Under the pieces are notes generated by a model. That model had not been told where the DNA came from and searched no databases. It saw only the letters and a list, made by a program, of their open reading frames with translations. From Horticoccus luteus (GTDB lineage Bacteria; Verrucomicrobiota; Verrucomicrobiia; Opitutales; Opitutaceae), in the NCBI RefSeq assembly GCF_019464535.1, contig NZ_CP080507.1, positions 3,840,001-3,872,000 of the forward strand: a stretch of 32,000 bases of DNA. Reading direction: 5' to 3'. Shown piece by piece: positions 3,173 through 23,006 of the stretch. Position 1 is the first letter of the stretch, and the number at the start of each line of letters is the position of its first letter. Both the position numbers and the translations under genes were made by a program.

Positions 3173-4018
3173 TCACTTCTTCGTCCGCGCCCCGTCGGAT
3201 GCCGCGCTGCTTTCCGGCCCATGGTTTTCTCCCGCCGCACGGCGTTCGCCGGACGCGCCGCTCTTCTCTTCGCGCGCCCGCGGCGAGGCCGGTGTTTCCG
3301 GCACGACCATCGCTTCGCCCAACTCCACGTGACCGGTGCGCACCGGCGCTTTCACCCACACCGGCCGCGATGACTCCCGTCCAAATTGAGGAGCGCCACT
3401 TTCGACGAGCGCCTGGACGACATCGCTGATCTCCACGCCCTGCGCCGGCGTGCTCATGCGCGCCTGCCAGAGCTCCGTTTTCGTTTTCTTGCGCGCATCC
3501 GCATAGTCGTAAGCCGTCACGATGACGAAGAAACGATCCTGCGCCGCCGCATCGAGCACGCGCTGCCGTTCGATGCTCATCTGCAGATTATGCACCTCGC
3601 TCGCGCCCACCAGCGTCAGCATTTCCTGGGCGTTGAGCAGCACCGGATCGGGCGCGTCCGGATCATCGCTCATATCCTCGCTGTCCGCCGCGACCGCGCC
3701 CCAATAAAACACCAGCAGCAACGTCGGCGGCGGCGTCTTCGCGGTCGCCACGCGATAACCCTGCTGCGCGAGCGCCCGCACGAGTGGATGGGTCAACAAC
3801 GCCTCCGCGGGCGGCTTCTCCCCGGGCTCCACCGCATCATCCGTCCGCCAGTTCGCCAGCAACGGGAAATAATACGCCGGCCGCTCCGGCGTGGGCCGCG
3901 CCAACCTCCGCCCGGCCTCGGTCACGGAGCCGTTGACGTTGATTTCGCATCGCCGCTCGCGCGCGCCCAGGCCCGTGGCAGTGAAAACGCTCAACCAAAA
4001 ATAAATCGACCGGCGCAT
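3173..4018 (-). CDS. secreted hypothetical protein, tandem paralog 1
   Basis: ATG at 4018 gives MRRSIYFWLSVFTATGLGA followed by CEINVNGSVTEAGR. Collinear similarity to the neighbouring ORF 4171-4992 along the whole length (LLLVFYWGA / LLLVFHWGA, acidic insert, AYDYADA / AFDYADA, VVQALVESGAPQFGRE / VVQALVDSGAPYFGRE). Confidence 0.65.
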   Translation of the reverse strand: MRRSIYFWLSVFTATGLGARERRCEINVNGSVTEAGRRLARPTPERPAYYFPLLANWRTDDAVEPGEKPPAEALLTHPLVRALAQQGYRVATAKTPPPTLLLVFYWGAVAADSEDMSDDPDAPDPVLLNAQEMLTLVGASEVHNLQMSIERQRVLDAAAQDRFFVIVTAYDYADARKKTKTELWQARMSTPAQGVEISDVVQALVESGAPQFGRESSRPVWVKAPVRTGHVELGEAMVVPETPASPRAREEKSGASGERRAAGENHGPESSAASDGARTKK

Positions 4019-4170: not shown

Positions 4171-4992
4171 TCACTTCTTCGCGCCGGTCGCCGCAGGCAA
4201 CGCAGTCGACGGGGGAGCTTTTTCCGGCACCTCGATTACCTCGCCAAATTCCACGCGGCCCTCGCGCACCGGCGCCTCCGCCCAGACCGGGCGCTTCGTT
4301 TCCCGCCCGAAATACGGCGCCCCGCTGTCCACCAACGCCTGCACCACATCGGTCATCACCACGCCTCGTGACGGCGTGCTGATCCGCGCCCGCCAAAGCA
4401 GCGTCTTTTTCTTCTTCACCGCGTCCGCATAGTCGAAGGCCGACACCAGCACAAAATAGCGGTCCTCCTCCGCCGCCTGCATCACCGCATCGCGTTCGAA
4501 GTTGAGATCCAGTGCGCCAAACGTATTTCCGCCCACCAGCGCCAGCATCTGCGCCTGGTTGCGTACCTGCTTCTGCGGTTCTCCGTCTTCATCCTCCGTC
4601 TCGTCCTCGTCCACGTTCAGCGCTCCCCAATGGAAAACCAGCAGCAACGTGGGCGCGGGCGTTCCCGGTCCCATGACAAGATAACCTTGCCGGGCGAGCG
4701 CGCGTGCGAGCGGCTTGACCAGCGCCTCGCGTCGCGGTGCTTTCTCTCCCGCCTCCACCGGGCCTTCCTCCCGCCAGCCCGCCAGCAACGGAACGTAAAA
4801 CACCGGCTTCGCCTTCGTCGGCGGCGTGACCTTCCTCCCCGCTTCGGTGACGGAGACGTTGACGTTCACCTCGCAGGTTTTCGGTGCGGCCACCACGCCG
4901 GCGGCGAGCATCGACGCGAAACACGACGCAATGAAAGAGCGCACCGCGCGATGACGCACCAAGCCGCCGCTCGTTTCAAGCTCACGCCGCAC
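4171..4992 (-). CDS. secreted hypothetical protein, tandem paralog 2
   Basis: Paralog of 3173-4018. The start is probably GTG at 4992 or a nearby in-frame GTG. Hydrophobic segment SFIASCFASMLAAGVVAAP, then CEVNVNVSVTEAGR. Confidence 0.65.
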   Translation of the reverse strand: MRRELETSGGLVRHRAVRSFIASCFASMLAAGVVAAPKTCEVNVNVSVTEAGRKVTPPTKAKPVFYVPLLAGWREEGPVEAGEKAPRREALVKPLARALARQGYLVMGPGTPAPTLLLVFHWGALNVDEDETEDEDGEPQKQVRNQAQMLALVGGNTFGALDLNFERDAVMQAAEEDRYFVLVSAFDYADAVKKKKTLLWRARISTPSRGVVMTDVVQALVDSGAPYFGRETKRPVWAEAPVREGRVEFGEVIEVPEKAPPSTALPAATGAKK

Positions 4993-14966: not shown

Positions 14967-15156
14967 GCGGACACCCCTCCGTTTCGCCGACCCGTCCCAT
15001 CACCTTTTCCACCGCCGATCCGGCCGCTCATCGCATCACGCATTCCTTCGCCCATCGCATCGCCCGACGCGACCGCCCTCCCGCGCACAAGATCGACCCG
15101 CCGCCCCCGTTCTCCTCGTGCTCCGCGCCTTTTGCGAAGATTGGCCGCGCGCGCTG

Positions 15157-15396
15157 TCATCCGACTTTCACCACGATCGTCTGGCCTGCGATCGTCACGC
15201 GATCGCCCGCCACGAGTTGTTTCCGCTTCCGTGTTTCGAGCGCGCCGTTGAGCAGCACGCCACCCTCGGCGACGAGCTGCTTCGCCGCGCCACCGCTCTC
15301 CGCGAGCCCGCCGAATTTAATGAACTGGCACAACTCGATCGGCACCTCACGCACGGCCACCTCGCGTGGTTCGGAAGAAGCATTTGGATTCGCCAT
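15157..15396 (-). CDS. S4-domain RNA-binding protein (YbcJ-like)
   Basis: ATG at 15396 (MANPNASS...). The stretch IELCQFIKFGGLAESGGAAKQLVAEGGVLLNGALETRKRKQLVAGDRV is the small S4-like fold typical of YbcJ-family proteins. Confidence 0.75.
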   Translation of the reverse strand: MANPNASSEPREVAVREVPIELCQFIKFGGLAESGGAAKQLVAEGGVLLNGALETRKRKQLVAGDRVTIAGQTIVVKVG

Positions 15397-15479
15397 CGCG
15401 CACACGATTCACCGTGACCGCGAGTGAGTCGACGCTCGATTGCACCGGTGTCGACTGTTTGCGGGGCGTGCCGCGTGAA

Positions 15480-15731
15480 CCGCCGCGCGGCGGTTCGCGC
15501 CCATCCGCGGCGAACGCCCCCTCTCGACGGGCGAAAGCGAACGCCGCCGGCACGCGCGCCCGCGACCGGCGCAAGCGGTCGCCGTCCGGCGCTGCGTCCG
15601 CCCATCGGCGGTCGGAGGCCACTACAAAACGCATAAGTGGCGGTCGTAACCGCGGACGCCTCCGAAACGGGCTTGTTCAACCCGCGTCCCGCTGCGCGCT
15701 ACGGCGCAACAGAACGCTCAGAGTTCGGCTC
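15480..15731. repeat. Repeat A copy 1 (long form; conserved ~62-bp core at about 15670-15731, attC-like core 15675-15729)
   Basis: Starts with the 14-bp palindrome CCGCCGCGCGGCGG. Aligns with 19636-19861 along its length (with indels) and with 17700-17862 (more divergent). Core: GTTCAAC cc GCGT ccc GCTGCGC gctacg GCGCAAC aga ACGC tcaga GTTCGGC. The stop codon of ORF 15718-16275 lies inside it. Confidence 0.85.
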
Positions 15732-16275
15732 TGGTTTTCTTTTCTGTTTTTTGGGTGTTCGCATTTACAGATGGCGAAAAAATAAAAAATAATAAAAACA
15801 GCCAGCCGACCCAAGGTATGACGTAGAAAAAAATCATGTAAGGCGAATTACCTAAGTCTCTAGCTCTTTTGATGTGCGCACAAATAAAAGTCCATCCGCT
15901 GAGAATGAAAAACGGCAGACATAAAATTATGGCTAAATCGCCACCGCTGCTGTAATAGCCTTGACCTTGGGACTTGATAATTACTCCGCCGAGGATAAAA
16001 ATAAATGCGCAGCAAAATAGTAAGATCGTGAATATGGATCTTGGGATTTTTCCGTAGGGTGAAAAGAGAATCGATGCGATTCCGACTCCAATAGTCGCTG
16101 TTGCATATCCTCGTTCGGCTTTTAGTAACTGTTCGGCGCGAAATCTTAAGTAATTTGCCTTGGCTTTCTTTTCATCACCTTCGGAAAAGGCCATGGCCTT
16201 AACCCAAATGCCTTGAGATACTTGCTGGGTCTGAAGCTCTTGGAGAGCGGCATTATATGCGTTTTCTTCGGTCAT
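15718..16275 (-). CDS. DUF805-like inner-membrane protein with a soluble N-terminal segment (island cargo 1)
   Basis: AT-rich ORF. Start at ATG 16275 (MTEENAY...) or the in-frame ATG 16293 (MPGQNTM...) inside repeat B. The C-terminal half has about 4 TM segments and the RARDLGNSPYMIFFYVIPWVGWLFLLF motif typical of DUF805/YhaH-type proteins (from memory). Confidence 0.7.
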   Translation of the reverse strand: MTEENAYNAALQELQTQQVSQGIWVKAMAFSEGDEKKAKANYLRFRAEQLLKAERGYATATIGVGIASILFSPYGKIPRSIFTILLFCCAFIFILGGVIIKSQGQGYYSSGGDLAIILCLPFFILSGWTFICAHIKRARDLGNSPYMIFFYVIPWVGWLFLLFFIFSPSVNANTQKTEKKTRAEL

Positions 16276-16291
16276 GGTATTTTGCCCAGGC

Positions 16292-16297
16292 ATTATA
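16292..16297 (-). promoter_or_regulatory. perfect -10 hexamer TATAAT facing out of repeat B1 into cargo ORF 1
   Basis: The minus strand reads gcagcTATAATGcctgggcaaaataccATG. No convincing -35 at 16-18 bp. The same arrangement occurs at 18524-18529. Confidence 0.3.
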
Positions 16298-16422
16298 GCT
16301 GCGATGAAGGAGCGGAAAGCGAAGAGGGTGCTTGTCCCCGGTGAACGCGGGTTACCCTCGAATAGCGCCGATCCGCAGGGGTGTGGCGTGTAACCGAAAC
16401 AACCAAAACCAGAGGCAAGCAC

Positions 16423-16696
16423 ATGAAGCTCAAGCAAAGATACGTGGGCCTGGATGTCCACAAAGATACTATCACGATAGCGACGGCGGAAGGCAGCCGC
16501 GAAGGCGAGTTGCGCGTGTATGGACGGGTGAGTTCAGACCTGCGGATGTTGGAGAAGACGTTGCGCAAGATTCGGATATCGAGATCAATGCGAACGTCTT
16601 TCGTCGAGCTTGGAAACGTGGCGTGCGCAACGTGCTCGGGCGGGGGTGCCCGCAATTCGCTTCGTTTGTCAAGAGTCAAGGCGTGCGGTTTTATGG
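16423..16696 (+). pseudogene. IS110-family transposase, N-terminal fragment
   Basis: The YVGLDVHKDTI signature contains the first catalytic Asp of DEDD transposases. The reading frame degenerates after about 60 codons, and homology to copy 2 ends at 16696. There is a 2-nt indel relative to copy 2. Confidence 0.75.
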
Positions 16697-17592
16697 GGTT
16701 TTCGTCGATGTGTTTGTCAGCGGCCCCACCCATGAGCTGCTGCCCACGCCGACGATCGTGCCCGGGACCGGAGCCCGTATCGTGCAGGCGGGTTACTATG
16801 CCCGGTGGGTCGGGCGGCTGGAACTCACGGTGGACCTGGAAACCAGGAAGGTGATCGAGGCCGCGGGCGAGGCGATCCCCATGAGACATGACCGGACGCC
16901 GGTCGACGCCGCGATGCTGGCCTGGGTGCGGCAGCGGGAGAGTGAATTGTGCCCGGAGGCGAGCGACGTGCTGGTGAAGGACTCCGGGATGTTGACCATG
17001 AATGAGGTGGCCTGGCTGGGAGCGGCGGCGCTGCGGCGCCAGGCAAAAACCGATGTGGGCTTCTGCCATGCCGGGCAGGGTCATCCGCAGTCCGATCTTC
17101 CCGGGACCGCTCGACGTCAACGCCCTGTTCCTCGCCGGCGGGGATCGCGGCAACGCCACGGTGCGCACGGAACTGACCGGCGCGGAGATCGAGGCCTATT
17201 TGCGGGCGTTGGGTGAGCGACAGGATCAGACGAGCTGGTCCGGGTTCAAGGTCGTGTCGGGGGCGGCGAATCCCGGGCGATTGGCCACGGACCTGGAGCC
17301 GGCGCGGAGTTACACGGTGATCATGCCGGCTAAGGAATGGGACACCCGGTTTCTGCGGATGGTCGAAAACGCCAGGAAGTCCAGCCGCGGCAACCCACTC
17401 ACGGCGCGCCCGTTTGCCGCGACTCCCGCCCCGACGGTGTCGTTCACCGTGGCCATGCGAAACTACGTGGAGCAGCTGACGGCGGCGAAACAATCGCTCA
17501 AGGCGGAGGCGGACCGCTTGTCCACCGCGACCGGCGCACGGCCGACCGCCCCGGCCGATTGGGCGGCCACCGCGGGTCAGGCCGGTCGCTGA
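16697..17592 (+). pseudogene. 5'-nucleotidase / metallophosphatase family protein, C-terminal portion, frameshifted
   Basis: VDVFVSGPTHELL ... IVQAGYYARWVGRLELTVDLETRKV ... then, after a frameshift near 17070, VIRSPIFPGPLDVNALF ... VRTELTGAEIEAYLE-like. This resembles the end of the phosphoesterase domain plus the 5'-nucleotidase C-terminal domain. Host-like high GC, native stop at 17592, N-terminus replaced by repeat B1. Confidence 0.6.
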
Positions 17593-17699
17593 AGGCTCCG
17601 GGCGGAGTGCCCGTGCGAGTGGGTGACGCGGCGCGGAGCTCTCTCGTGAACGACGTCCAGGTTTGAGCCGGCAATCCTGCGTGTTGCAGTGTATAAAGG

Positions 17700-17862
17700 G
17701 CGCTCCGCATTTCTCCCCCGCCCGTAGGACCGCCGCGGGTCGGCGCGCCCACAACAAAGCGACTAAGCGCGCTCGTCGCGACGGCCTGCACCCGCAACCG
17801 GGCTTGTTCAACCCGCGTCCCGCTGCGCGCTACGGCGCAGCAGAACGCTCAGAGTTGGGCTC
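17700..17862. repeat. Repeat A copy 2 (divergent extension 17700-17799; conserved core 17800-17862; attC-like core 17806-17860)
   Basis: The core GTTCAAC...GCTGCGCgctacgGCGCAGC...GTTGGGC is near-identical to copies 1 and 3. ORF 17830-18507 reads into the core and stops at the TAG inside the palindrome loop. Confidence 0.85.
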
Positions 17863-18507
17863 CTTCTTCTTCAACATCTCGTCATAGTTCGGTGGAGGTT
17901 CGTGCCGAATCTCAATCCTGGCATTCTCAATCTCGCTGATCTTCTGCACAATGGCCGGCTCGTCAGGATGGAGTTTCGCATACTCTCTCAGGTGCGACAA
18001 GGCCTTCGCCTTGTCTCCTTGGCTGAGGTAGACAAACGCCAGCGTGTAGTGGGCGTCGGTGACGCCAAGTGCCAAAGCCTTCTCCAGATAGGCAATGCTA
18101 TCTTTCTGCCGGGCGGCCGTGGCGGACAGAAAGGCGCCGTAATAGAAATTCGCTCGGCTGTCGTTGGGCTTCAACTCCAGCAGCCGATCGAAAGCCTTGA
18201 AATACTTCTGCGCACAACCCTCGAAATCGAGATTGTGCCCCATCGCATTCGCAAAACCGTCACGAAACAATAGCTCTGGATTGTCGGGATACTGAGCGAC
18301 TGCGGCGTCCAGCATCACAAGCAATTCCCTAAGCTGAGCCTCGATCTGCCTCCGTTCCGCCACCGAAGAAAAACTCGGCGGGAAGTCTTGGGCGTGGGGA
18401 GCGATCACCGACAATGTCGAGTCAATCGACTTCAGGCTCAGCGACACTTCCTTTGCCGACAAACCTGTAACTGCAATCAAGACGACGGTCAAAAAGATGG
18501 AACGCAT
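17830..18507 (-). CDS. secreted TPR-repeat protein (island cargo 2)
   Basis: ATG at 18507 gives the signal peptide MRSIFLTVVLIAVTGLSA. TPR-like helices follow (AQKYFKAFDRLLELKPNDSRANFYYGAFL, YLEKALALG, AHYTLAFVYLSQGDKAKALSHLREYAKLHPDEP). The longer ORF-track form (to 18693) runs antisense through repeat B2. Confidence 0.75.
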   Translation of the reverse strand: MRSIFLTVVLIAVTGLSAKEVSLSLKSIDSTLSVIAPHAQDFPPSFSSVAERRQIEAQLRELLVMLDAAVAQYPDNPELLFRDGFANAMGHNLDFEGCAQKYFKAFDRLLELKPNDSRANFYYGAFLSATAARQKDSIAYLEKALALGVTDAHYTLAFVYLSQGDKAKALSHLREYAKLHPDEPAIVQKISEIENARIEIRHEPPPNYDEMLKKKEPNSERSAAP

Positions 18508-18523
18508 TTGGTTTAGCCCAGGC

Positions 18524-18529
18524 ATTATA
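18524..18529 (-). promoter_or_regulatory. perfect -10 hexamer TATAAT facing out of repeat B2 into cargo ORF 2
   Basis: The minus strand reads gcagcTATAATGcctgggctaaaccaaATG. This is the same geometry as at B1. Confidence 0.3.
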
Positions 18530-18654
18530 GCTGCGATGACGGAGCGGAAAGCGAAGAGGGTGCTTGTCCTTGGTGAACGCGGGTTACGCTCGAAGAGCGC
18601 CGATCGGCAGGGGTGTGGCGTGTAACCGAGACAACCAAAACCAGAGGCAAGCAC

Positions 18655-18926
18655 ATGAAGCTCAAGCAAAGATACGTGGGCCTGGATGTCCACAAAGATA
18701 CAATCACGATAGCGACGGCGGAAGGCAGCCGCGAAGGCGAGTTGCGCGTGTATGGACAGGTGAGTTCAGACCTGCGGGTGTTGGAGAAGACGTTGCGCAA
18801 GATCCGGATAACGGGAGCAATGCGAAGGTCTTTCGTCGAGCTTGGAAACTTGGCGTGTGCAACGTGCTCGGGCGGGGGCCTGCAATTCGCTTCGCTTGTC
18901 AAGAGTCAAGGCGTGCGGTTTTATGG
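18655..18926 (+). pseudogene. IS110-family transposase, N-terminal fragment
   Basis: MKLKQRYVGLDVHKDTITIATAEGSREGELRVYGQVSSDLRVLEKTLRKIR..., truncated at 18926. Confidence 0.75.
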
Positions 18927-18983
18927 CTTTACTTACGGCGGGAGATTATACACCCGCCTTCTCGTTCCTACTGGTTCGGCTTT

Positions 18984-19376
18984 TCATCTGCTGGAATATT
19001 CTCGATGCACCTTATCGAACGGAGCGTCGGCCAACGCATCGTAGACTCGAGTGGAACAGAGCCCGATGACGATCAAGTGCGTCCGCGTGGTCGAATCCCG
19101 CTGAAGAATCGACTTTGCGTCCATCGGATACTGATAGCTGTGTCTATAAAGTGTGTTGCCGACCTTTACGAACGGAAGCCACCGCCAAAACGGGCGTTCG
19201 ATTTCGACCCTCGCAATCAAATCACCGCTTCGCTCTTTTGCGGCCTCTCGATTGCTCGTGGTAGAAGCGAATTGTGACGAGTAGCAGCTGATTAAGCCGG
19301 TCTGATCGATCGCCGCCAAAATCAGCACGGATGCTCCGAGAATCGCTGCGATTTTCTTTTGAGGGAATATGGCCAT
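18984..19376 (-). CDS. small N-terminally anchored/secreted hypothetical protein (island cargo)
   Basis: ATG at 19376 gives MAIFPQKKIAAILGASVLILAAI. AT-rich with no recognisable domain. The ORF-track start at 19400 is a GTG inside repeat C1. Confidence 0.55.
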   Translation of the reverse strand: MAIFPQKKIAAILGASVLILAAIDQTGLISCYSSQFASTTSNREAAKERSGDLIARVEIERPFWRWLPFVKVGNTLYRHSYQYPMDAKSILQRDSTTRTHLIVIGLCSTRVYDALADAPFDKVHREYSSR

Positions 19377-19393
19377 TTTTTGCCGTTCACTTT

Positions 19394-19457
19394 TATTCAC
19401 CCTTACCCGATTGCCTTACCCGAAAGGGATTCATGGGAATAAACATGCACACAACGC
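19394..19457. repeat. Repeat C copy 1 (upstream module with tandem CCTTACCCGA x2)
   Basis: tattcaCCCTTACCCGAttgCCTTACCCGAaaggg..tcatgggaata.acatgcacacaacgc is shared with 21655-21718. It lies immediately 5' (minus-strand sense) of ORF 18984-19376. Confidence 0.8.
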
Positions 19458-19471
19458 GCGACGGCTAAGAT

Positions 19472-19591
19472 GGGGTCAAGACGCTAGTTGGTAATCCCAG
19501 CTTTGAGACGTGCTTATTAATGTTCCATTGCACTACAAGTAGGCAAGGCAGGGCTGTACGATGCAAAATTAACAACTAGTGCCTTGACCCC
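19472..19591. repeat. 120-bp AT-rich element bounded by 19-bp imperfect terminal inverted repeats (MITE-like or long hairpin)
   Basis: GGGGTCAAGACGCTAGTTG at 19472-19490 versus CAACTAGTGCCTTGACCCC at 19573-19591. 16 of 19 positions are complementary, with a central 3-nt mismatch. Confidence 0.6.
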
Positions 19592-19635
19592 GCTCCACGG
19601 CTACAACAACCGGCTGAGCGGGTGGGCCATGCGCT

Positions 19636-19861
19636 CCGCCGCGCGGCGGTTCGTGCCCTTCCGCGGCGGACGCCCTCTCGGCGGACGAAAACCGACCCCG
19701 CCGGCACGCGTGCCTGCGACCGGCGCTGTGTCCGCCACCGGTGGGCGGCCACTACAAAACGCATAAGCGGCGGTCGGAGCCGCGGCCGCCTTCGTCCCAA
19801 GCTTGTTCAACCCGCGTCCCGCTGCGCGCTACGGCGCAGCAGAACGCTCAGAGTTAGGCTC
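19636..19861. repeat. Repeat A copy 3 (long form; attC-like core 19805-19859)
   Basis: Starts with the same CCGCCGCGCGGCGG palindrome as copy 1. The core is GTTCAAC...GCTGCGCgctacgGCGCAGC...GTTAGGC. The core begins 2-3 nt after the TAA stop of ORF 19863-20408. Confidence 0.85.
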
Positions 19862-19862
19862 T

Positions 19863-20408
19863 TTATACATAGCGCTCGATGTGCTTCTTATCAGATAGAA
19901 AAAACGACGCTACGAATCTCGCATTATCGGAGTAGGCAAGCTTCCCAACAGCCGATGTAAAGTGCAGCTCGTGGTCGTGACTGGGCTTCCTTCCAATTAC
20001 GCTCCATGCAATCCAAAGACCGATCAACGCTTCCAACTCTTCTTCTTTCTTCTCGTGGAGCGCGTCGAAACACGGGATAACGTCGGATTCTATCGCTCCG
20101 TGCGGAAGCTGCAAAAGAAAGCTACACAAACCCTGTATAGCTGCGACGAATCGCGAACGAACAGAAAGGTCGATGCCCTGCACGATACCAGCGTGAAGTC
20201 GCGAATAGTCGTGCTTTCCGAGAAAGCGCTCTATGCGCGCAAGAGTGCCGACAATCACTGCACTCTGGTAAATATCGCCGAACAGCGCCTCTTTCTTCTC
20301 AATGCCAAGCTGCGGGAATCGGGCTTCGAGTGGCCCAATCGTGTCCGACGTAAAATTGAAGGCCCACATCAGCACTTGCCCGTGTGGTGTGCGAAGATCA
20401 GCGGGCAT
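19863..20408 (-). CDS. hypothetical protein (about 181 aa, island cargo; last gene of a 3-gene operon)
   Basis: ATG at 20408 (MPADLRTPHGQVLMW...). The ORF-track start at 20420 is TTG. Lower GC than core genes, no recognisable domain, no signal peptide. Confidence 0.6.
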   Translation of the reverse strand: MPADLRTPHGQVLMWAFNFTSDTIGPLEARFPQLGIEKKEALFGDIYQSAVIVGTLARIERFLGKHDYSRLHAGIVQGIDLSVRSRFVAAIQGLCSFLLQLPHGAIESDVIPCFDALHEKKEEELEALIGLWIAWSVIGRKPSHDHELHFTSAVGKLAYSDNARFVASFFLSDKKHIERYV

Positions 20409-20491
20409 ATTTTTTGCCAACGTCAGCAGTCAGCCACGGAGGGGAGCGTCAGTTCCCCGGAGTTGGCTGTGATGCTCTGGATCGGCCTGCT

Positions 20492-20986
20492 TCATTTCTC
20501 GAGGAGTTTCTTCTTCGCAGCCTCAAACTCCGCATCAGTGATGATGCCCTTCTTTCGCAGATCATCGAGCTTGGTAAGCTCGGTGTAGAGATCCGGAGCT
20601 TTCTCTTCTTTTGTCTTAACGTCCGCGGCGATCTTCTCGGTCTTCTCGACCACGATGTCCGCTCGGGGCACTAGAGCTGTGCGCTTCGCTTCGGGATCAT
20701 CTTTGTCAACGACGCGAAACTGGTAATCGAACGACGCGAACTGACCGATCGCCATCGGCGTCTCTTGAGTCGAAAGTGGGATTGCCACTTTCCCTTGCTT
20801 GGCGGCGAACTCATTCGCTTCATGTATAACCTCCGCCTTCATCTTGCTGGCGTTCCCGAATATGCCGCCCTTGTCCGTGCGCGAGATAAAGTATGTGTCT
20901 GGCGAAATCTGCACGACGCCGGGATTGGCGCAACCGGCTAAAATCAGGGAACAGCATGCTAGAAACGTGAGGACTAAGGGTTTCAT
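20492..20986 (-). CDS. lipoprotein with C-terminal SHOCT domain
   Basis: Lipobox MKPLVLTFLACCSLILAGC. The C-terminus LTKLDDLRKKGIITDAEFEAAKKKLL is the SHOCT (short C-terminal oligomerisation) motif. Confidence 0.8.
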   Translation of the reverse strand: MKPLVLTFLACCSLILAGCANPGVVQISPDTYFISRTDKGGIFGNASKMKAEVIHEANEFAAKQGKVAIPLSTQETPMAIGQFASFDYQFRVVDKDDPEAKRTALVPRADIVVEKTEKIAADVKTKEEKAPDLYTELTKLDDLRKKGIITDAEFEAAKKKLLEK

Positions 20987-21633
20987 AATTCTTCTGCCGA
21001 TGTTATAGGTGAGACGCGAGGGGGCGCAGCCACCTCGTTGTCTGTGCCGTCTTGTTCGCCCTCTGCCGGTTTTCGCAAAGATGTCAGCCGATCAAACTGA
21101 TCAGGCGACATGTGAGAAATAACATGAATAGCCGACTTTCCCTCTATCAACCCCCTAATCTTCTTTCTGATCTGGTGCTGATCCTCCTCAATCTCTCCAT
21201 AACCCTTTGGATAATAAGATGAACTCTTTATATGGCCCTTATCAAATTCGTAACCTAAGCATTCCGCCATGTCGTGAAGAAGATCTACGAGCAATTCTGC
21301 TCGCCGATGATTCCATGACTCAGGTGGGTAGCTGTGGTCGCCGAGATGCGCGTGATACAGCTTCCATGCCGACACCACTCGCTTTTCTTCCGCGCCTCGA
21401 TGATCGAACTCGATGTCTATCAGATTCAATGCCTCAACGTGCGTCGGAGACAGTGATGAAGCGCGAGTCGCCATCAGCGTGCGGAACACATGAATCTGCC
21501 GATCACGCTTTTCTTTCTTCAGGCGTAGACCTTCCGTCACGCGAACTGCGAGGTAAGGCCCTGCAAACACCGCGAGAATCATCACGAGGTCGGTCGCTCT
21601 GGCGGTCCAATCTATGGCCAATGCTGCGATCAT
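20983..21633 (-). CDS. N-terminally membrane-anchored hypothetical protein (216 aa; possibly DUF6680-like)
   Basis: ATG at 21633. One N-terminal TM segment (LVMILAVFAGPYLAV), then a helical soluble domain (IHVFRTLMATRASSLSPTHVEALNLIDIEF). The stop overlaps the start of the SHOCT gene (ATGA). The family assignment is from memory and tentative. Confidence 0.65.
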   Translation of the reverse strand: MIAALAIDWTARATDLVMILAVFAGPYLAVRVTEGLRLKKEKRDRQIHVFRTLMATRASSLSPTHVEALNLIDIEFDHRGAEEKRVVSAWKLYHAHLGDHSYPPESWNHRRAELLVDLLHDMAECLGYEFDKGHIKSSSYYPKGYGEIEEDQHQIRKKIRGLIEGKSAIHVISHMSPDQFDRLTSLRKPAEGEQDGTDNEVAAPPRVSPITSAEEL

Positions 21634-21654
21634 GGTTTTCTTCGGCGAACAATG

Positions 21655-21718
21655 TATTCACCCTTACCCGATTGCCTTACCCGAAAGGGGCTCATGGGAA
21701 TAGACATGCACACAACGC
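21655..21718. repeat. Repeat C copy 2 (upstream module with tandem CCTTACCCGA x2)
   Basis: Near-identical to 19394-19457. It lies 22-85 bp 5' (minus-strand sense) of ORF 20983-21633. Confidence 0.8.
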
Positions 21719-21790
21719 TCGGAGTATCAATACTTGCGCAGCTTGGGTAAGTTTTTTCGTCCTAGGCGGGGCACGTTCGTGCGGAATCGA

Positions 21791-21940
21791 CGAAATGCTG
21801 AGGCGTTCCGCCACACGAGCCGCGCGGACGGCAGGGATCAAACGAAACGCTGACGCGTTCCGGCACTCGACTGACGCGGACTGAGACCGATAGCGCGAAA
21901 TGCTCACGCGTTCCGATACAGGACCGGGCGGACCAGCGCC
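21791..21940. repeat. tandem repeat, 52-53-bp unit, about 3 copies, each starting with the imperfect palindrome CGAAAYGCTSASGCGTTCCG
   Basis: 20-mers at 21791-21810, 21843-21862 and 21896-21915. The intervening 32-33 bp also align with each other (..CAC.CGA....CGCGGAC.G..). Located between the island and the stop of the nucleoside hydrolase gene. Confidence 0.7.
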
Positions 21941-21953
21941 AAAAAGGCGTCCC

Positions 21954-23006
21954 TCAATCCTCGTGGCGCACGCGCGCGAGTTTCGGCGGCGCCACCATCA
22001 ACGCTTCGATCACCGCCGCGAGGCGCGCCGGATCGCCGGCAATCTTCACATACGCCTGCGCGCTCCCGTCCGTCTCCACCCAGTTACTATTTCCGTCCGC
22101 CGCCAATTCCACACGCCCACCGCGCACGAGCGTCCAAAATTCTTTCTCCGACCCACGCACCGTATAAAGCGCCGCCGCTTGGTCATAGCTCGGCTTGCCC
22201 TTTTCGATCGCCGCCGGCCCGTGACTCAAAAACTGGTAACGCGTCTCGAACGCGCGGCGCACCGGATTGTGTTTCGCCACCGATTTGAGTCCGGCTCCCG
22301 TAATGAGAACCCGCCCCACTTCGTCGCCCTGCCAGATAATCTCTCCCGGCCACTCCGCCACCACGATGCGCGCCGGCTCGGGATGCGTGGCGATGTTCGT
22401 CTCCGGCTTCGACGACACAGGAAATTCGCCCGCCATGACCACCAGCCGATGCACCTTCTGCCGCACGAGGTCCGGCGCCGCCCGCCACAACGCCGCGAGA
22501 TTCGAGAACGATCCAATGCTGCAAATTGTCACGCTGCCGTCCGGCTGCGCCTGCAGCGTTTCCCGATACACCTTCAACGCGTCCGGCATCGCGTCGTCCG
22601 GCCCCGCGTGATGCGGAAACTCGTCGCGCAACACCGTGGTAAACGTGCTCCGCCGCCGCAGCGCTGTCGGCGCCTGCTTGTCCGTGCCGATCGGAATATC
22701 CCCGCGCCCGTAGTAAGTATTGATTACGTCAACCGCCGCCGCCGAAGCGTTCGTCAAATCCCGGCGATTCGTCACGACGGCCAGGATCCGGCACTCGCCG
22801 CGATCCGCCAGCGCATGCAACACCGCGAGCGCACCCACATCGTCGCAATCCCCCGACATGTCGGTGTCGAGGATCACCGCCACCGGAGCCGCCGCGGGCC
22901 CCGCCGGCGCAACGGCGCAAAGCCCGCCGCACGCGAAGATCAACATCGCCAGCCGTCCGGCCGTCGCAGCCGCCACGCGCAAAAACCAAAATCGCCAAAG
23001 CGTCAT
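21954..23006 (-). CDS. secreted inosine/uridine-preferring nucleoside hydrolase family protein
   Basis: An N-terminal hydrophobic signal, then VILDTDMSGDCDDVGALAVLHAL, which is the DTDxxxDD aspartate cluster of IUNH-family hydrolases. Confidence 0.8.
   Translation of the reverse strand: MTLWRFWFLRVAAATAGRLAMLIFACGGLCAVAPAGPAAAPVAVILDTDMSGDCDDVGALAVLHALADRGECRILAVVTNRRDLTNASAAAVDVINTYYGRGDIPIGTDKQAPTALRRRSTFTTVLRDEFPHHAGPDDAMPDALKVYRETLQAQPDGSVTICSIGSFSNLAALWRAAPDLVRQKVHRLVVMAGEFPVSSKPETNIATHPEPARIVVAEWPGEIIWQGDEVGRVLITGAGLKSVAKHNPVRRAFETRYQFLSHGPAAIEKGKPSYDQAAALYTVRGSEKEFWTLVRGGRVELAADGNSNWVETDGSAQAYVKIAGDPARLAAVIEALMVAPPKLARVRHED

Follow-up and report, generated by a model that had tools for sequence, protein, structure and literature searches.

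An attC-like repeat in a Horticoccus luteus cassette array is probably the junction between an integron inverse core and the oriIS end of an IS91-family element

Insertion sequences of the IS91 family (IS91, IS801, IS1294 and the ISCR elements) encode a Y2 HUH transposase. They have subterminal palindromes at oriIS, a palindrome at terIS and a target tetranucleotide at oriIS, and they insert without target duplication; IS91 itself always keeps T at position 2 of its target and uses a single-stranded intermediate of the bottom strand (PMC13181058). Integron attC sites, or 59-base elements, run from an inverse core R'' (consensus RYYYAAC) to an R' box (consensus GTTRRRY) and naturally fold as single-stranded DNA. 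IntI-type enzymes are known to cleave R' of the bottom strand, not R''. Cassette arrays are specifically invaded at attC by insertion sequences of the IS1111-attC group, which combine a DEDD transposase with a guide RNA, and by group IIC-attC introns, which are retro-homing ribozymes. Predicted attC sites have also been placed at or just after ISCR28, adjoining sul4 (PMC12772301).

We analysed a 32-kb stretch of the Horticoccus luteus genome (the window), in which three near-identical copies of a 55-bp unit with attC-like anatomy lie at 15675-15729, 17806-17860 and 19805-19859, as confirmed by a three-way alignment and by a search with a 34-nt core pattern (exact matches at 15675, 17806 and 19805; 0 expected from 100 shuffles). 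The minus-strand sequence of each copy is (A)GAGCC[G/C/T]AAC TCTGA GCGTTCT G[C/T]TGCGC CGTAGC GCGCAGC GGGACGC GG GTTGAAC AAGC, and the G/C/T variable base falls at 15726, 17857 and 19856 in copies 1, 2 and 3. The original prediction of a 7-bp perfect-palindrome terminal stem holds except in copy 1, where GTTGCGC replaces GCTGCGC (A at 15709), so that the stem contains a T.G pair and the palindrome is imperfect. Together with the supposed L arms, the 7-bp stem forms one 14-bp stem, in which two positions pair as G.T on the minus strand and are C.A mismatches on the plus strand. Conservation does continue past the unit, as had been noticed: about 75 further nucleotides are common to all copies, up to CTTATGCGYTTTGT.GTGG, and copies 1 and 3 are alike over ~240-270 nt (15464-15732 vs 19620-19862). 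Each copy lies where a different low-GC ORF of the minus strand terminates, again in agreement with the first description. The stop of ORF 15718-16275 is the TGA of CTCTGA within copy 1, that of ORF 17830-18507 is a TAG in the hairpin loop of copy 2, and that of ORF 19863-20420 is a TAA located 3 nt ahead of the 55-bp unit (19859), abutting the preceding AGAGCC. We propose, with a probability of roughly 0.88, that each core repeat is a junction at which a 7-base attC R'' (GCC[N]AAC on the minus strand) meets the oriIS end of an IS91-family element, the IS side comprising TCTGA, the 14-bp hairpin, GG, GTTGAACAAGCC and some 75 bases beyond.

The island that houses the repeats (15.4-21.9 kb) is a decayed integron gene-cassette array. 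It holds two intact attCs, four interrupted attCs and two attI-like sites (Table 1), and no fewer than five IS remnants plus one small MITE-like insert with inverted repeats are crowded into its ~6 kb; TRF found no tandem array at 21600-22100. As in CALINs, there are at least two attC sites, and tblastn located no IntI anywhere in the 32-kb window, including the position upstream of the attI-like site at 21644..21721 where intI would be expected; the suggestion of a CALIN-like array with no intI in view is thus borne out. The crossover site GTTCGCC of that attI-like sequence is 10 nt ahead of the first cassette ATG and is complementary to the R'' (GGCGAAC) of the intact attC at 20996-21060, which itself falls within the 3' end of the mechanical ORF 20983-21633. 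In six related Opitutaceae loci a divergent gene for an integron integrase, or a fragment of one, lies 0.5-5 kb away from the repeat, and the IntI genes near repeat-bearing arrays of relatives score 370 and 376 bits (TIGR02249 cut-off 265). In one relative (L005), where the real cassette boundaries are GTTNGGC, the reverse complement of the cassette R'' equals the R' preceding the same cassette in five cases out of five, a rule also valid for cassettes F and E of the window. GCC[N]AAC, predicted to be an inverse core, is a genuine attC R'' whose variable base is cassette-specific; GCC[C/T]AAC meets the R'' consensus and GCCGAAC is off at one position. A strict scan for canonical attCs (R boxes of 7 bp, a spacer of 4-6 nt on either side) returned almost nothing even in real arrays and was replaced by lineage-specific patterns and a covariance model (R1); the spacers of this lineage are 5 and 2 nt. 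Real attCs score 44-77 bits with R1, which has only 8 base pairs and therefore mostly tests sequence homology.

Table 1. Features assigned to the island, in window positions.
Feature	Position	Strand	Parts and basis of assignment
Probable IS91-family oriIS-end remnant W1, without transposase gene	15464..15722	+	Homology to full-length elements; invariant box GGCTTGTTCAAC 15670-15681; 14-bp hairpin 15684-15717; terminal TCAGA 15718-15722
Cassette ORF A, DUF805 membrane protein	15718..16275	-	
R'' GCCGAAC, attC of DUF805 cassette	15723..15729	-	Uninterrupted attCs of the lineage start with R'' GCCNAWC, then CAG; tally of 42 IS-end right flanks
IS110-family derivative, internally deleted, ~415 bp	16280..16696	+	
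Probable IS91-family oriIS-end remnant W2	17744..17853	+	Box 17801-17812; hairpin 17815-17848; TCAGA 17849-17853
Cassette ORF B, TPR lipoprotein-like protein	17830..18507	-	
R'' GCCCAAC, attC of TPR-lipoprotein cassette	17854..17860	-	
IS110-family derivative, second copy, in attC after ORF 18984-19376	18512..18926	+	
attC 5' part (GCCGAAC CAGTAGG...), severed by IS110 derivative	18927..18983	-	Weak CM match 18956-18980, 9.8 bits
Second attI-like copy (repeat D4), upstream of ORF 18984-19376	19394..19460	-	
Probable IS91-family oriIS-end remnant W3	19620..19852	+	Box 19800-19811; hairpin 19814-19847; TCAGA 19848-19852
R'' GCCTAAC, attC of cassette with ORF 19863-20420	19853..19859	-	
Cassette ORF D, without family match	19863..20420	-	
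Intact attC, SHOCT-lipoprotein cassette (R'' GCCGATC, R' GTTGGCA)	20415..20486	-	CM R1 59.3 bits (belonged to R1 training set); alignment with attCs of IntI-linked arrays
Intact attC, DUF6680 cassette	20996..21060	-	CM R1 44.5 bits, E 6e-9 (outside training set)
attI-like site	21644..21721	-	By-eye alignment with attI regions of L001 and L002, adjoining IntI genes; two GGTAAGG direct repeats, GAATACATT, crossover site GTTCGCC

Evidence for the origin of the repeat comes from relatives and metagenomes. A genome-collection scan placed the repeat at nine loci of Opitutaceae/Verrucomicrobia MAGs. At three of these (L008, L001 and L005) tblastn detected a convergent IS91 transposase gene ~300 nt past the repeat, only a fragment in L005, and at L002 DNA alignment found one at the contig end. 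On one contig L003 and L009 form a near-perfect palindrome whose halves meet 78 nt into the repeat, and L004 and L006 end 78-93 nt inside it, which we read as assembly breaks at a multi-copy element. The transposase is of the IS91 Y2 type (NF033538, 348 bits; Pfam Y2_Tnp and Zn_Tnp_IS91) and was used to retrieve 80 metagenome loci, in ~40 of which a 135-nt unit stands 200-300 nt downstream of the transposase stop on the same strand. These loci establish the repeat as the end of an IS91 lineage. The full element is ~2.8 kb and consists of a left end GTTGAACCAAGCCGCTGCGCGGCG, a tyrosine-recombinase gene, the Y2 HUH transposase gene, a spacer of 200-300 nt, the box GGCTTGTTCAAC, the hairpin and a terminal CTCAGA. 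The recombinase lies upstream of the transposase in 70 loci; its best NCBIfam match, in two stretches and below cut-off, is integron integrase (3.7e-49), and in L008 the catalytic R, K, H, R, H and Y are apparently present by eye. The box is identical in 41 of the 42 collected ends, copy 3 of the window being one base off (AGCTTG...). Full-length copies all come from MAGs or metagenome contigs, and their mobility is putative. Remnants without a transposase gene occur elsewhere, since L018:788-1151 equals the last ~365 nt of a full copy in the same locus.

The flanks of the element define where it inserts. After ..CTCAGA the tetranucleotide is GTTG (15), GTTA (9), GATC (8) or GTTC (4) in 36 of 41 flanks, and the bases that follow are GGC in 25 of 41, usually continued by CTTTCTTCA or a close variant; read in reverse complement, this flank is the cassette end TGAAGAAAGAGCC-NAAC. 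At the opposite end a motif, TTGAACCAAGCCGCTGCGCGGCG, is found upstream of the recombinase gene in ~35 loci, as is a palindrome, GCCGC..GCGGC, and the bases outside the motif are the rest of an attC in reverse complement. The two flanks rejoin as one attC, split between R'' (..NAAC) and CAGCC with no repeated bases, and this shows at which point of the attC the element inserts. In 15 loci or more, full-length R1 matches of 25-73 bits end 5-6 nt inside the left end, taking GTTCAAC of the IS as R''. Tandem or circular copies are represented by oriIS-terIS junctions in L055, L061 and L067 and, in degenerate form, in L075; a circle junction would read ..CTCAGA followed directly by GTTGAACCAAGCC.., and the junctions of these loci fold as one long hairpin (z -3.3 to -4.6; none of 200 shuffles as stable). 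In copy 1 of the window the sole attC-derived part is the R'', whose GTTC on the transposase-sense strand is also the target tetranucleotide adjoining oriIS.

Covariation demonstrates that the hairpin itself is conserved. Compensatory changes affect 9 of its 14 pairs and give a covariation score of 0.349; shuffles gave 0.065 (none of 500 reach the observed value) and slid controls at most 0.051. On the transposase-sense strand two positions form C.A in 35/36 and 29/36 copies, which corresponds to G.T on the opposite strand. This bias, like the more stable fold of the minus strand in the window (energies below), fits the bottom-strand intermediate described for IS91 (PMC13181058).

In its Y2 HUH transposase, in an oriIS placed downstream of the transposase gene with a subterminal palindrome, in a palindromic left end starting with a target-like tetranucleotide (GTTG), and in oriIS-terIS junctions without target duplication, the element resembles the IS91 family. 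The oriIS of IS91, IS801 and IS1294 abuts a tetranucleotide of the GTTC/CTTG type; here it is GTTN or GATC on the transposase-sense strand. Unlike those relatives, the element accepts a GATC flank, targets a specific position inside an integron attC and not just a tetranucleotide, and has an IntI-like tyrosine-recombinase gene upstream of the transposase; a few IS91 members listed in ISfinder also have such a gene. Like IS1111-attC elements and group IIC-attC introns it specifically invades attC in cassette arrays, but it does so with HUH and tyrosine-recombinase enzymes and at the R''/L'' boundary. The IS110-family derivative of the window likewise sits in attC R' sites: it consists of a left end, the first 52 codons and a right end, the left end of the copy at 16280..16696 abuts ..GGC aaaatacc ATG (an R' remnant of the next cassette), and its two copies are 94-96% identical over two compared repeat blocks (D1 and D7). 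ISShvi3, from a Shewanella integron, and ISCR28 differ by description, with no split attC, defined insertion point or attC-like circle junction reported.

The anatomy that first suggested an integron site could mean that the 55-bp core is itself the cassette attC, in which case R'' GCCNAAC would pair with R' GTTGAAC, IntI would recombine between G and TTGAAC, and the hairpin would be the L box plus variable terminal structure. The sequence does match RYYYAAC...GTTRRRY, its initial 7 nt do form a genuine R'', the copies stand at cassette-ORF 3' ends in real integron arrays, and the R''-5 nt-stem-2 nt-GTTRRRY layout copies natural attCs of the lineage. We nevertheless consider this very improbable, for the spacer, the L''/stem/L' arms and GTTGAAC, all assigned at first to the cassette, travel instead with the IS91-family element: GTTGAAC is an IS inverted-repeat box; the hairpin, invariant or covarying with the IS and not the cassette, recurs 3' of dozens of unrelated ORFs and is tied to IS91 genes in ~40 loci; sampled cassettes lacking an IS end after R'' all have an attC of the CAGCC...GGCTGAC type; and the remainder of the normal attC is found at the other IS end. 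GTTGAAC continues into ..GTTGAACAAGCC in 40 of 40 copies, and with the same AAGCC always following there is therefore no cassette crossover at that site. The attC covariance check gave no match of R1 at the three cores at E up to 10. Folding gave -16 to -17 kcal/mol for the minus strand and -12 to -14 kcal/mol for the plus strand, which would be the attC bottom strand and is weak (z 0.07 to -1.7), with C.A mismatches and with R'' and R' unpaired in the minimum-free-energy folds, whereas a natural attC bottom strand pairs its R box. A 135-nt 'long attC' with R' at GTTGGGC was rejected as well, because conservation fades gradually past GTTGGGC rather than ending at a crossover between G and TT, because the window copies have no GTT there and because the 135-nt unit is linked to IS91 genes. 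The repeat might otherwise be a transcribed RNA element, such as a terminator or 3'-UTR stabiliser maintained by selection for cassette expression, and G.U pairs on the ORF strand, a covarying hairpin and its greater strength on the ORF-sense strand directly past stop codons would all suit such a role; yet no T-run follows the hairpin, searching 15000-22500 against Rfam with E up to 1 yielded nothing beyond a spurious microRNA match, linkage to IS91 genes accounts for the position, and the IS91 bottom-strand DNA intermediate predicts the same strand bias, so we hold this to be highly improbable. That the sites are ends of an IS had been named as the outcome that would overturn the attC reading, and they are, though of the IS91 family and not of IS110 as then envisaged. 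An end or preferred target of an IS110-family element with 5' fragments nearby retains almost no credibility: IS110-like left ends do lie one ORF from copies 1 and 2, and L008 shows the same arrangement, but the IS110 that is complete there (NF033542, 235 bits) bears the core at neither end and sits in the R' of a different attC, with GTT before it and GGC after, and the core is physically tied to IS91 genes. The complete L008 element and the 80 IS91 loci together refute it.

A further reading accepts the IS end but makes it a functional attC mimic, with the tyrosine recombinase, rather than the HUH transposase, performing and targeting integration. We think this unlikely. The circular form would present GTTCAAC (from the left end), TCTGA, the hairpin, GG and GTTGAAC as an attC-like folded site; the element's own IntI-related recombinase, or a host IntI, might then recombine that site with the folded top strand of a target attC, between AA and C in the RYYYAAC of R'', the HUH enzyme merely producing the single-stranded circle. 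In its favour are the junction architecture, which is that of natural attC top strands, an exchange point within the shared AAC that is compatible with cleavage between AA and C, the recombinase gene with the profile match and catalytic residues described above, and a target specificity that exceeds four bases and tolerates GATC. Against it, cleavage by IntI-type enzymes is known in R' of the bottom strand and not in R'', and the IS91 paradigm alone accounts for duplication-free insertion beside a GTTC-like tetranucleotide (PMC13181058). On the same doubtful footing, the lineage might be a hybrid of rolling-circle transposon and integron cassette. Its circle junction (GTTCAAC, 5 nt, a covarying stem with fixed G.T pairs, 2 nt, GTTGAAC) would then be a structural attC, and integration between AA and C in R'' of the top strand would mirror that of IntI at the bottom-strand R'. 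Each insertion would conceivably turn one attC into a pair of attC-like sites, with the array perhaps still competent for recombination.

Returning to the IS91 junction, which we favour, the element inserts inside attC between R'' (..NAAC) and CAGCC without target duplication, the hairpin and box probably serving as the single-strand recognition structure for the transposase and the strand with G.T instead of C.A being presumably the bottom, active strand. Transposase-less copies may have arisen by deletion or by premature ending of a rolling-circle transfer begun at oriIS, and the copies in the window would have lost recombinase and transposase genes, neither of which was found there, leaving a 110-260 bp oriIS end in three different cassettes. 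Their probable assignment as IS91 ends derives from homology of the last ~65-130 nt. In W1 homology to full-length elements is confined to ~15598-15722, and what lies further in is common to W3 alone; BLAST matched none of the full-length elements to the inner ~135 nt of W1 and W3. An inner palindrome of these two, GAACCGCCGCGCGGCGGTTC, is loosely terIS-like, with a score within the shuffle range. Local alignments to the left end also fell within that range, so that W1 and W3 as complete mini-elements with a terIS were rejected as a result and stand as a bare possibility. After the inner end of W3 (near 19616) the cassette strand reads CAGCCGG.., a suggestive continuation of the attC split by W3, and the real terIS motif is absent there. 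W2 is preceded by a 5'-nucleotidase-like pseudogene, as in L005, and ORF B reads through R'' into the IS hairpin. Two findings sit awkwardly with an IS91 mechanism: the GATC flanks (8/41) have no T at position 2, and the target preference extends well past four bases, which a canonical HUH mechanism does not obviously explain.

The practical implication is that transposon ends can pass for attC palindromes at cassette ends, both for structure-based finders and for human readers, and published attC sites 'at the end of' ISCR28 or next to ISShvi3 may reflect the same effect. The lineage would add another class of mobile element that homes to attC, after the IS1111-attC insertion sequences and group IIC-attC introns. 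It is always accompanied by an IntI-like recombinase gene, and its single-strand-specific enzymes act on a site that is naturally folded as single-stranded DNA. If targeting is the work of the recombinase, rolling-circle transposition and integron-type recombination would meet in one lineage, which would also offer a compact system for DNA insertion at folded hairpin targets.

The core repeat, originally predicted to be an integron attC site with its inverse core (R''), hairpin and core box (R'), is in our reading an attC R'' joined to the oriIS (right) end of an IS91-family element (probability about 0.88); R'' and the array stand, but the hairpin and R' had been wrongly assigned. The 34-nt core pattern recurs exactly at 15675, 17806 and 19805, matching in none of 100 shuffles. 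On the minus strand the copies read (A)GAGCC[G/C/T]AAC TCTGA GCGTTCT G[C/T]TGCGC CGTAGC GCGCAGC GGGACGC GG GTTGAAC AAGC, with a single differing base in the stem of copy 1 (A at 15709). The predicted stem is present, but instead of a perfect 7-bp palindrome it comprises 14 bp with two G.T pairs (C.A mismatches when the plus strand is read). Folded as single-stranded DNA, the core reaches -16 to -17 kcal/mol on the minus strand versus -12 to -14 on the plus strand. Conservation does extend beyond 55 bp, about 75 further nt being common to all copies and 240-270 nt to copies 1 and 3, and each copy begins at or just past the stop codon of a different minus-strand ORF within a low-GC island (50-55% versus about 66%).

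Features of the island and its surroundings in the window
Feature	Position	Strand	Remarks
Repeats D3 and D5	3663-3949 and 4589-4875		adjacent; 70-74% identical; 926 bp apart
S4-domain gene	15157-15405		one border of low-GC island
IS110-family derivatives	16280-16696 and 18512-18926	plus	about 415 bp each; internally deleted
Frameshifted fragment	16700-17592	plus	high GC; opposite strand
attI-like, repeat D4	21655-21721 and 19394-19460	minus	match to IntI-adjoining attI regions of genome loci L001, L002
Short element	19472-19591		about 120 bp; 24-nt inverted repeats, 88% complementary
attC	20415-20486	minus	R1 59.3 bits; member of training set
DUF6680 cassette, mechanical ORF	20983-21633	minus	
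attC	20996-21060	minus	R1 44.5 bits, E 6e-9; new site
Three units	about 21790-21925		about 40 nt each; loosely alike
Nucleoside hydrolase gene	21954-23006		other border of low-GC island

The array itself is a decayed integron. A covariance model (A7, R1) trained on 14 attCs of the type seen at genome locus L005 gave two significant sites in the window, both on the minus strand, and D4 shares with the attI regions of L001 and L002 two GGTAAGG direct repeats and GAATA.CA.T, then GTTNGCC. Locus L005 is a textbook array whose cassettes end ..gaaGAGCC[N]A[A/T]C CAG.......GGCTGAC......G[T/A]TNGGC aagaaATG, and there the R' preceding a cassette is the reverse complement of that cassette's R'' in 5/5 cases, the signature of circular cassettes that cross over at G|TT. 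The variable base lies within R'', as had been noted, because it is specific to the cassette. The first two window cassettes obey the same rule (attI GTTCGCC with R'' GGCGAAC; R' ATCGGC with R'' GCCGATC), and tblastn found no IntI in the 32-kb window; the island is therefore a CALIN-type remnant, as predicted, and GCC[N]AAC a genuine R''. Two attI-like sites in one island suggest two fused or duplicated integron platforms, the inner copy having the crossover site GTGAACGGC instead of GTTNGCC. The DUF6680 ORF runs through its own attC (21060-20996), which thus encodes its last 25 or so residues, and shares an ATGA overlap with the next ORF. Three units (gaaatgctgaggcgttccgcc.. / gaaacgctgacgcgttccggc.. 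/ gaaatgctcacgcgttccgat..), none of them reported by TRF, occupy the expected intI position between attI and the nucleoside hydrolase gene. D3 and D5 are probably tandem paralogous genes, unrelated to the core repeat.

Scanning 185,579 species-representative genomes located the repeat at nine loci, all in Opitutaceae/Verrucomicrobia MAGs and each preceded by a different ORF. Integron-integrase genes or fragments lie near six of the nine, 0.5-5 kb upstream and divergent from the cassette ORFs: single full-length TIGR02249 matches (cut-off 265 bits) at L009 (370 bits) and L002 (376 bits), both with the IntI-specific KYP..W.WQWVFP segment visible, a 252-bit match at L004, and fragments at L001, L003 and L005. 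L009:5478-5600 and L003:1-123 belong to one contig (JAYRJE010000022.1), on which two integron arrays point towards each other. The oriIS ends of these arrays join as a near-perfect palindrome, each locus stopping 78 nt inside the repeat; the join is a true inversion junction or else a chimera assembled across a multi-copy IS. L004 and L006 end 78-93 nt inside the repeat, and our reading of all these stops is that assembly broke off at a multi-copy element.

What follows R'' distinguishes the core copies (TCTGAGCG...) from natural attCs (CAG(CC)). On the far side of the repeat tblastn detected an IS91 Y2 transposase, oriented convergently to the cassette ORFs, at L008, L001 and, as a fragment only, L005, and DNA alignment placed the 3' end of one at the L002 contig end. 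The transposase matches NF033538 (348 bits) and Pfam Y2_Tnp and Zn_Tnp_IS91, and a tyrosine recombinase gene lies upstream of it. Among 80 metagenome loci retrieved via the transposase (61-84% identical to it in most, 42-48% in ten outliers), about 40 carry the 135-nt unit 200-300 nt past its stop. Of 42 collected ends, 41 have an identical box GGCTTGTTCAAC, window copy 3 being a one-base variant (AGCTTG...). The 14-bp hairpin shows compensatory changes at 9/14 pairs, its covariation score being 0.349 versus 0.065 when shuffled (reached by 0/500) and at most 0.051 in slid controls; nearly all copies carry C.A at two places in the stem on the transposase-sense strand, hence G.T on the opposite one.

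After the terminal CTCAGA come GTTG (15), GTTA (9), GATC (8) or GTTC (4), then GGC in 25/41, mostly followed by CTTTCTTCA or a near variant; reverse-complemented, this flank gives the cassette end ..TGAAGAAAGAGCC-NAAC. The left end, (G)TTGAACCAAGCCGCTGCGCGGCG, was found upstream of the recombinase gene at about 35 loci, its outside flank being the reverse complement of an attC remainder; at 15 or more loci (at least) R1 gave full-length matches of 25-73 bits ending 5-6 nt inside the IS, with terminal GTTCAAC taken as R''. A cassette end on the right and an attC remainder on the left place the element within an attC, where it separates ..NAAC from CAGCC and duplicates no bases. Junctions of oriIS with terIS (the left end) at L055, L061 and L067, and a degenerate one at L075, fold as a single long hairpin (z -3.3 to -4.6). 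These features agree with what is published on IS91: subterminal palindromes in oriIS, which lies directly against a GTTC/CTTG-type tetranucleotide; a palindrome in terIS, whose first bases are a target-like tetranucleotide; no duplication of the target; and a bottom-strand single-stranded circle as the active intermediate (PMC13181058). At L020:6405-6480, L026:2655-2730 and L030:1417-1490 oriIS ends in a tandem repeat of its final 11-12 nt, the second copy following GTT or GGT (..GAACCCTCAGA GTT GAACCCTCAGA GTTCGCC..); rolling-circle initiation that was aborted or repeated at this end may have left such a footprint. In L018, L021, L024, L026 and L063 nearly the same left flank of about 70 nt (..GGGCCATGTGGAGCG..ATCAAGGGCGTTG.GCTGTGGCTGACTG), read by the model as a long, roughly 135-nt attC, recurs in different samples, so that one downstream cassette seems to accompany the IS.

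That the core is itself a genuine attC is excluded by membership tests and is now very improbable. Its 2-nt spacer had been listed as a departure from canonical attC but is normal in this lineage, since the natural attCs run R'', 5 nt, stem, 2 nt, R'. An RNA element, for which we found no independent support, is if anything slightly less credible. The complete IS110 of L008 excludes an IS110 end, since its own ends differ and it interrupts another attC, at R' between GTT and GGC.

Why an IS91-family end should resemble attC admits two accounts. Behind the host R'' the IS adds TCTGA, stem, GG and GTTGAAC, and at its other end GTTCAAC ahead of the host attC remainder; in the circle junction GTTCAAC and GTTGAAC lie on either side of the hairpin and base-pair. 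On one account this may be no more than the IS91 layout of inverted repeats plus hairpin, and AAC/GTT pairing at the hairpin foot might offer the HUH enzyme its cleavage site, much as a guide pairs with the cleavage site in IS200/IS605. On the other, the junction may function as an attC mimic on which the element's own recombinase acts, a protein present in 70 loci and best matched, as two stretches below cut-off, to integron integrase. Crossover at GTTGAAC left no sign, the same AAGCC following 40/40 hairpins, and junction sequences fit both accounts equally because the exchange point falls within the AAC common to both partners.

With no IS91 transposase or recombinase gene in the window, the element is reduced there to its last 110-260 bp in three different cassettes (remnants W1-W3, beside the R'' boxes GCCGAAC, GCCCAAC and GCCTAAC). 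A remnant in L018 equals the last 365 nt or so of a full copy at the same locus; oriIS-end-only remnants thus recur, and may arise by internal deletion or by premature stop of rolling-circle transfer from oriIS. An inner palindrome common to W1 and W3, GAACCGCCGCGCGGCGGTTC, is loosely terIS-like but no more similar to terIS than shuffled controls. W2 is preceded by a 5'-nucleotidase-like pseudogene. The frameshifted fragment between an IS110 derivative and W2, taken by eye as a 5'-nucleotidase C-terminal piece, matched nothing in Pfam; L005 has a 40%-identical homologue at the corresponding place (887-1249), next to a truncated IS91 transposase. The short element between W3 and the second attI-like site (GGGGTCAAGACGCTAGTTGGTAAT / ATTAACAACTAGTGCCTTGACCCC) looks like a MITE in attC remains.

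The two IS110 derivatives (94-96% identical over two repeat blocks compared) each retain the first 52 codons (MKLKQRYVGLDVHKDT..) between a left end and a short right end. On the left they adjoin ..GGC, 8 nt and the ATG of the next cassette. Together with the insertion in L008, these positions suggest an IS110 lineage targeting attC R' sites, comparable to IS1111-attC elements; attC targeting is established for IS1111-type elements and group IIC introns, as the Shewanella paper states. In the literature searched we found no description of an attC-targeting IS91 lineage, although two reports (ISShvi3 in a Shewanella integron, and ISCR28 next to sul4) look related. The feature is the end of a known kind of element, of the IS91 family, with an attC-like junction and a target specificity that is unusual and, it appears, undescribed.
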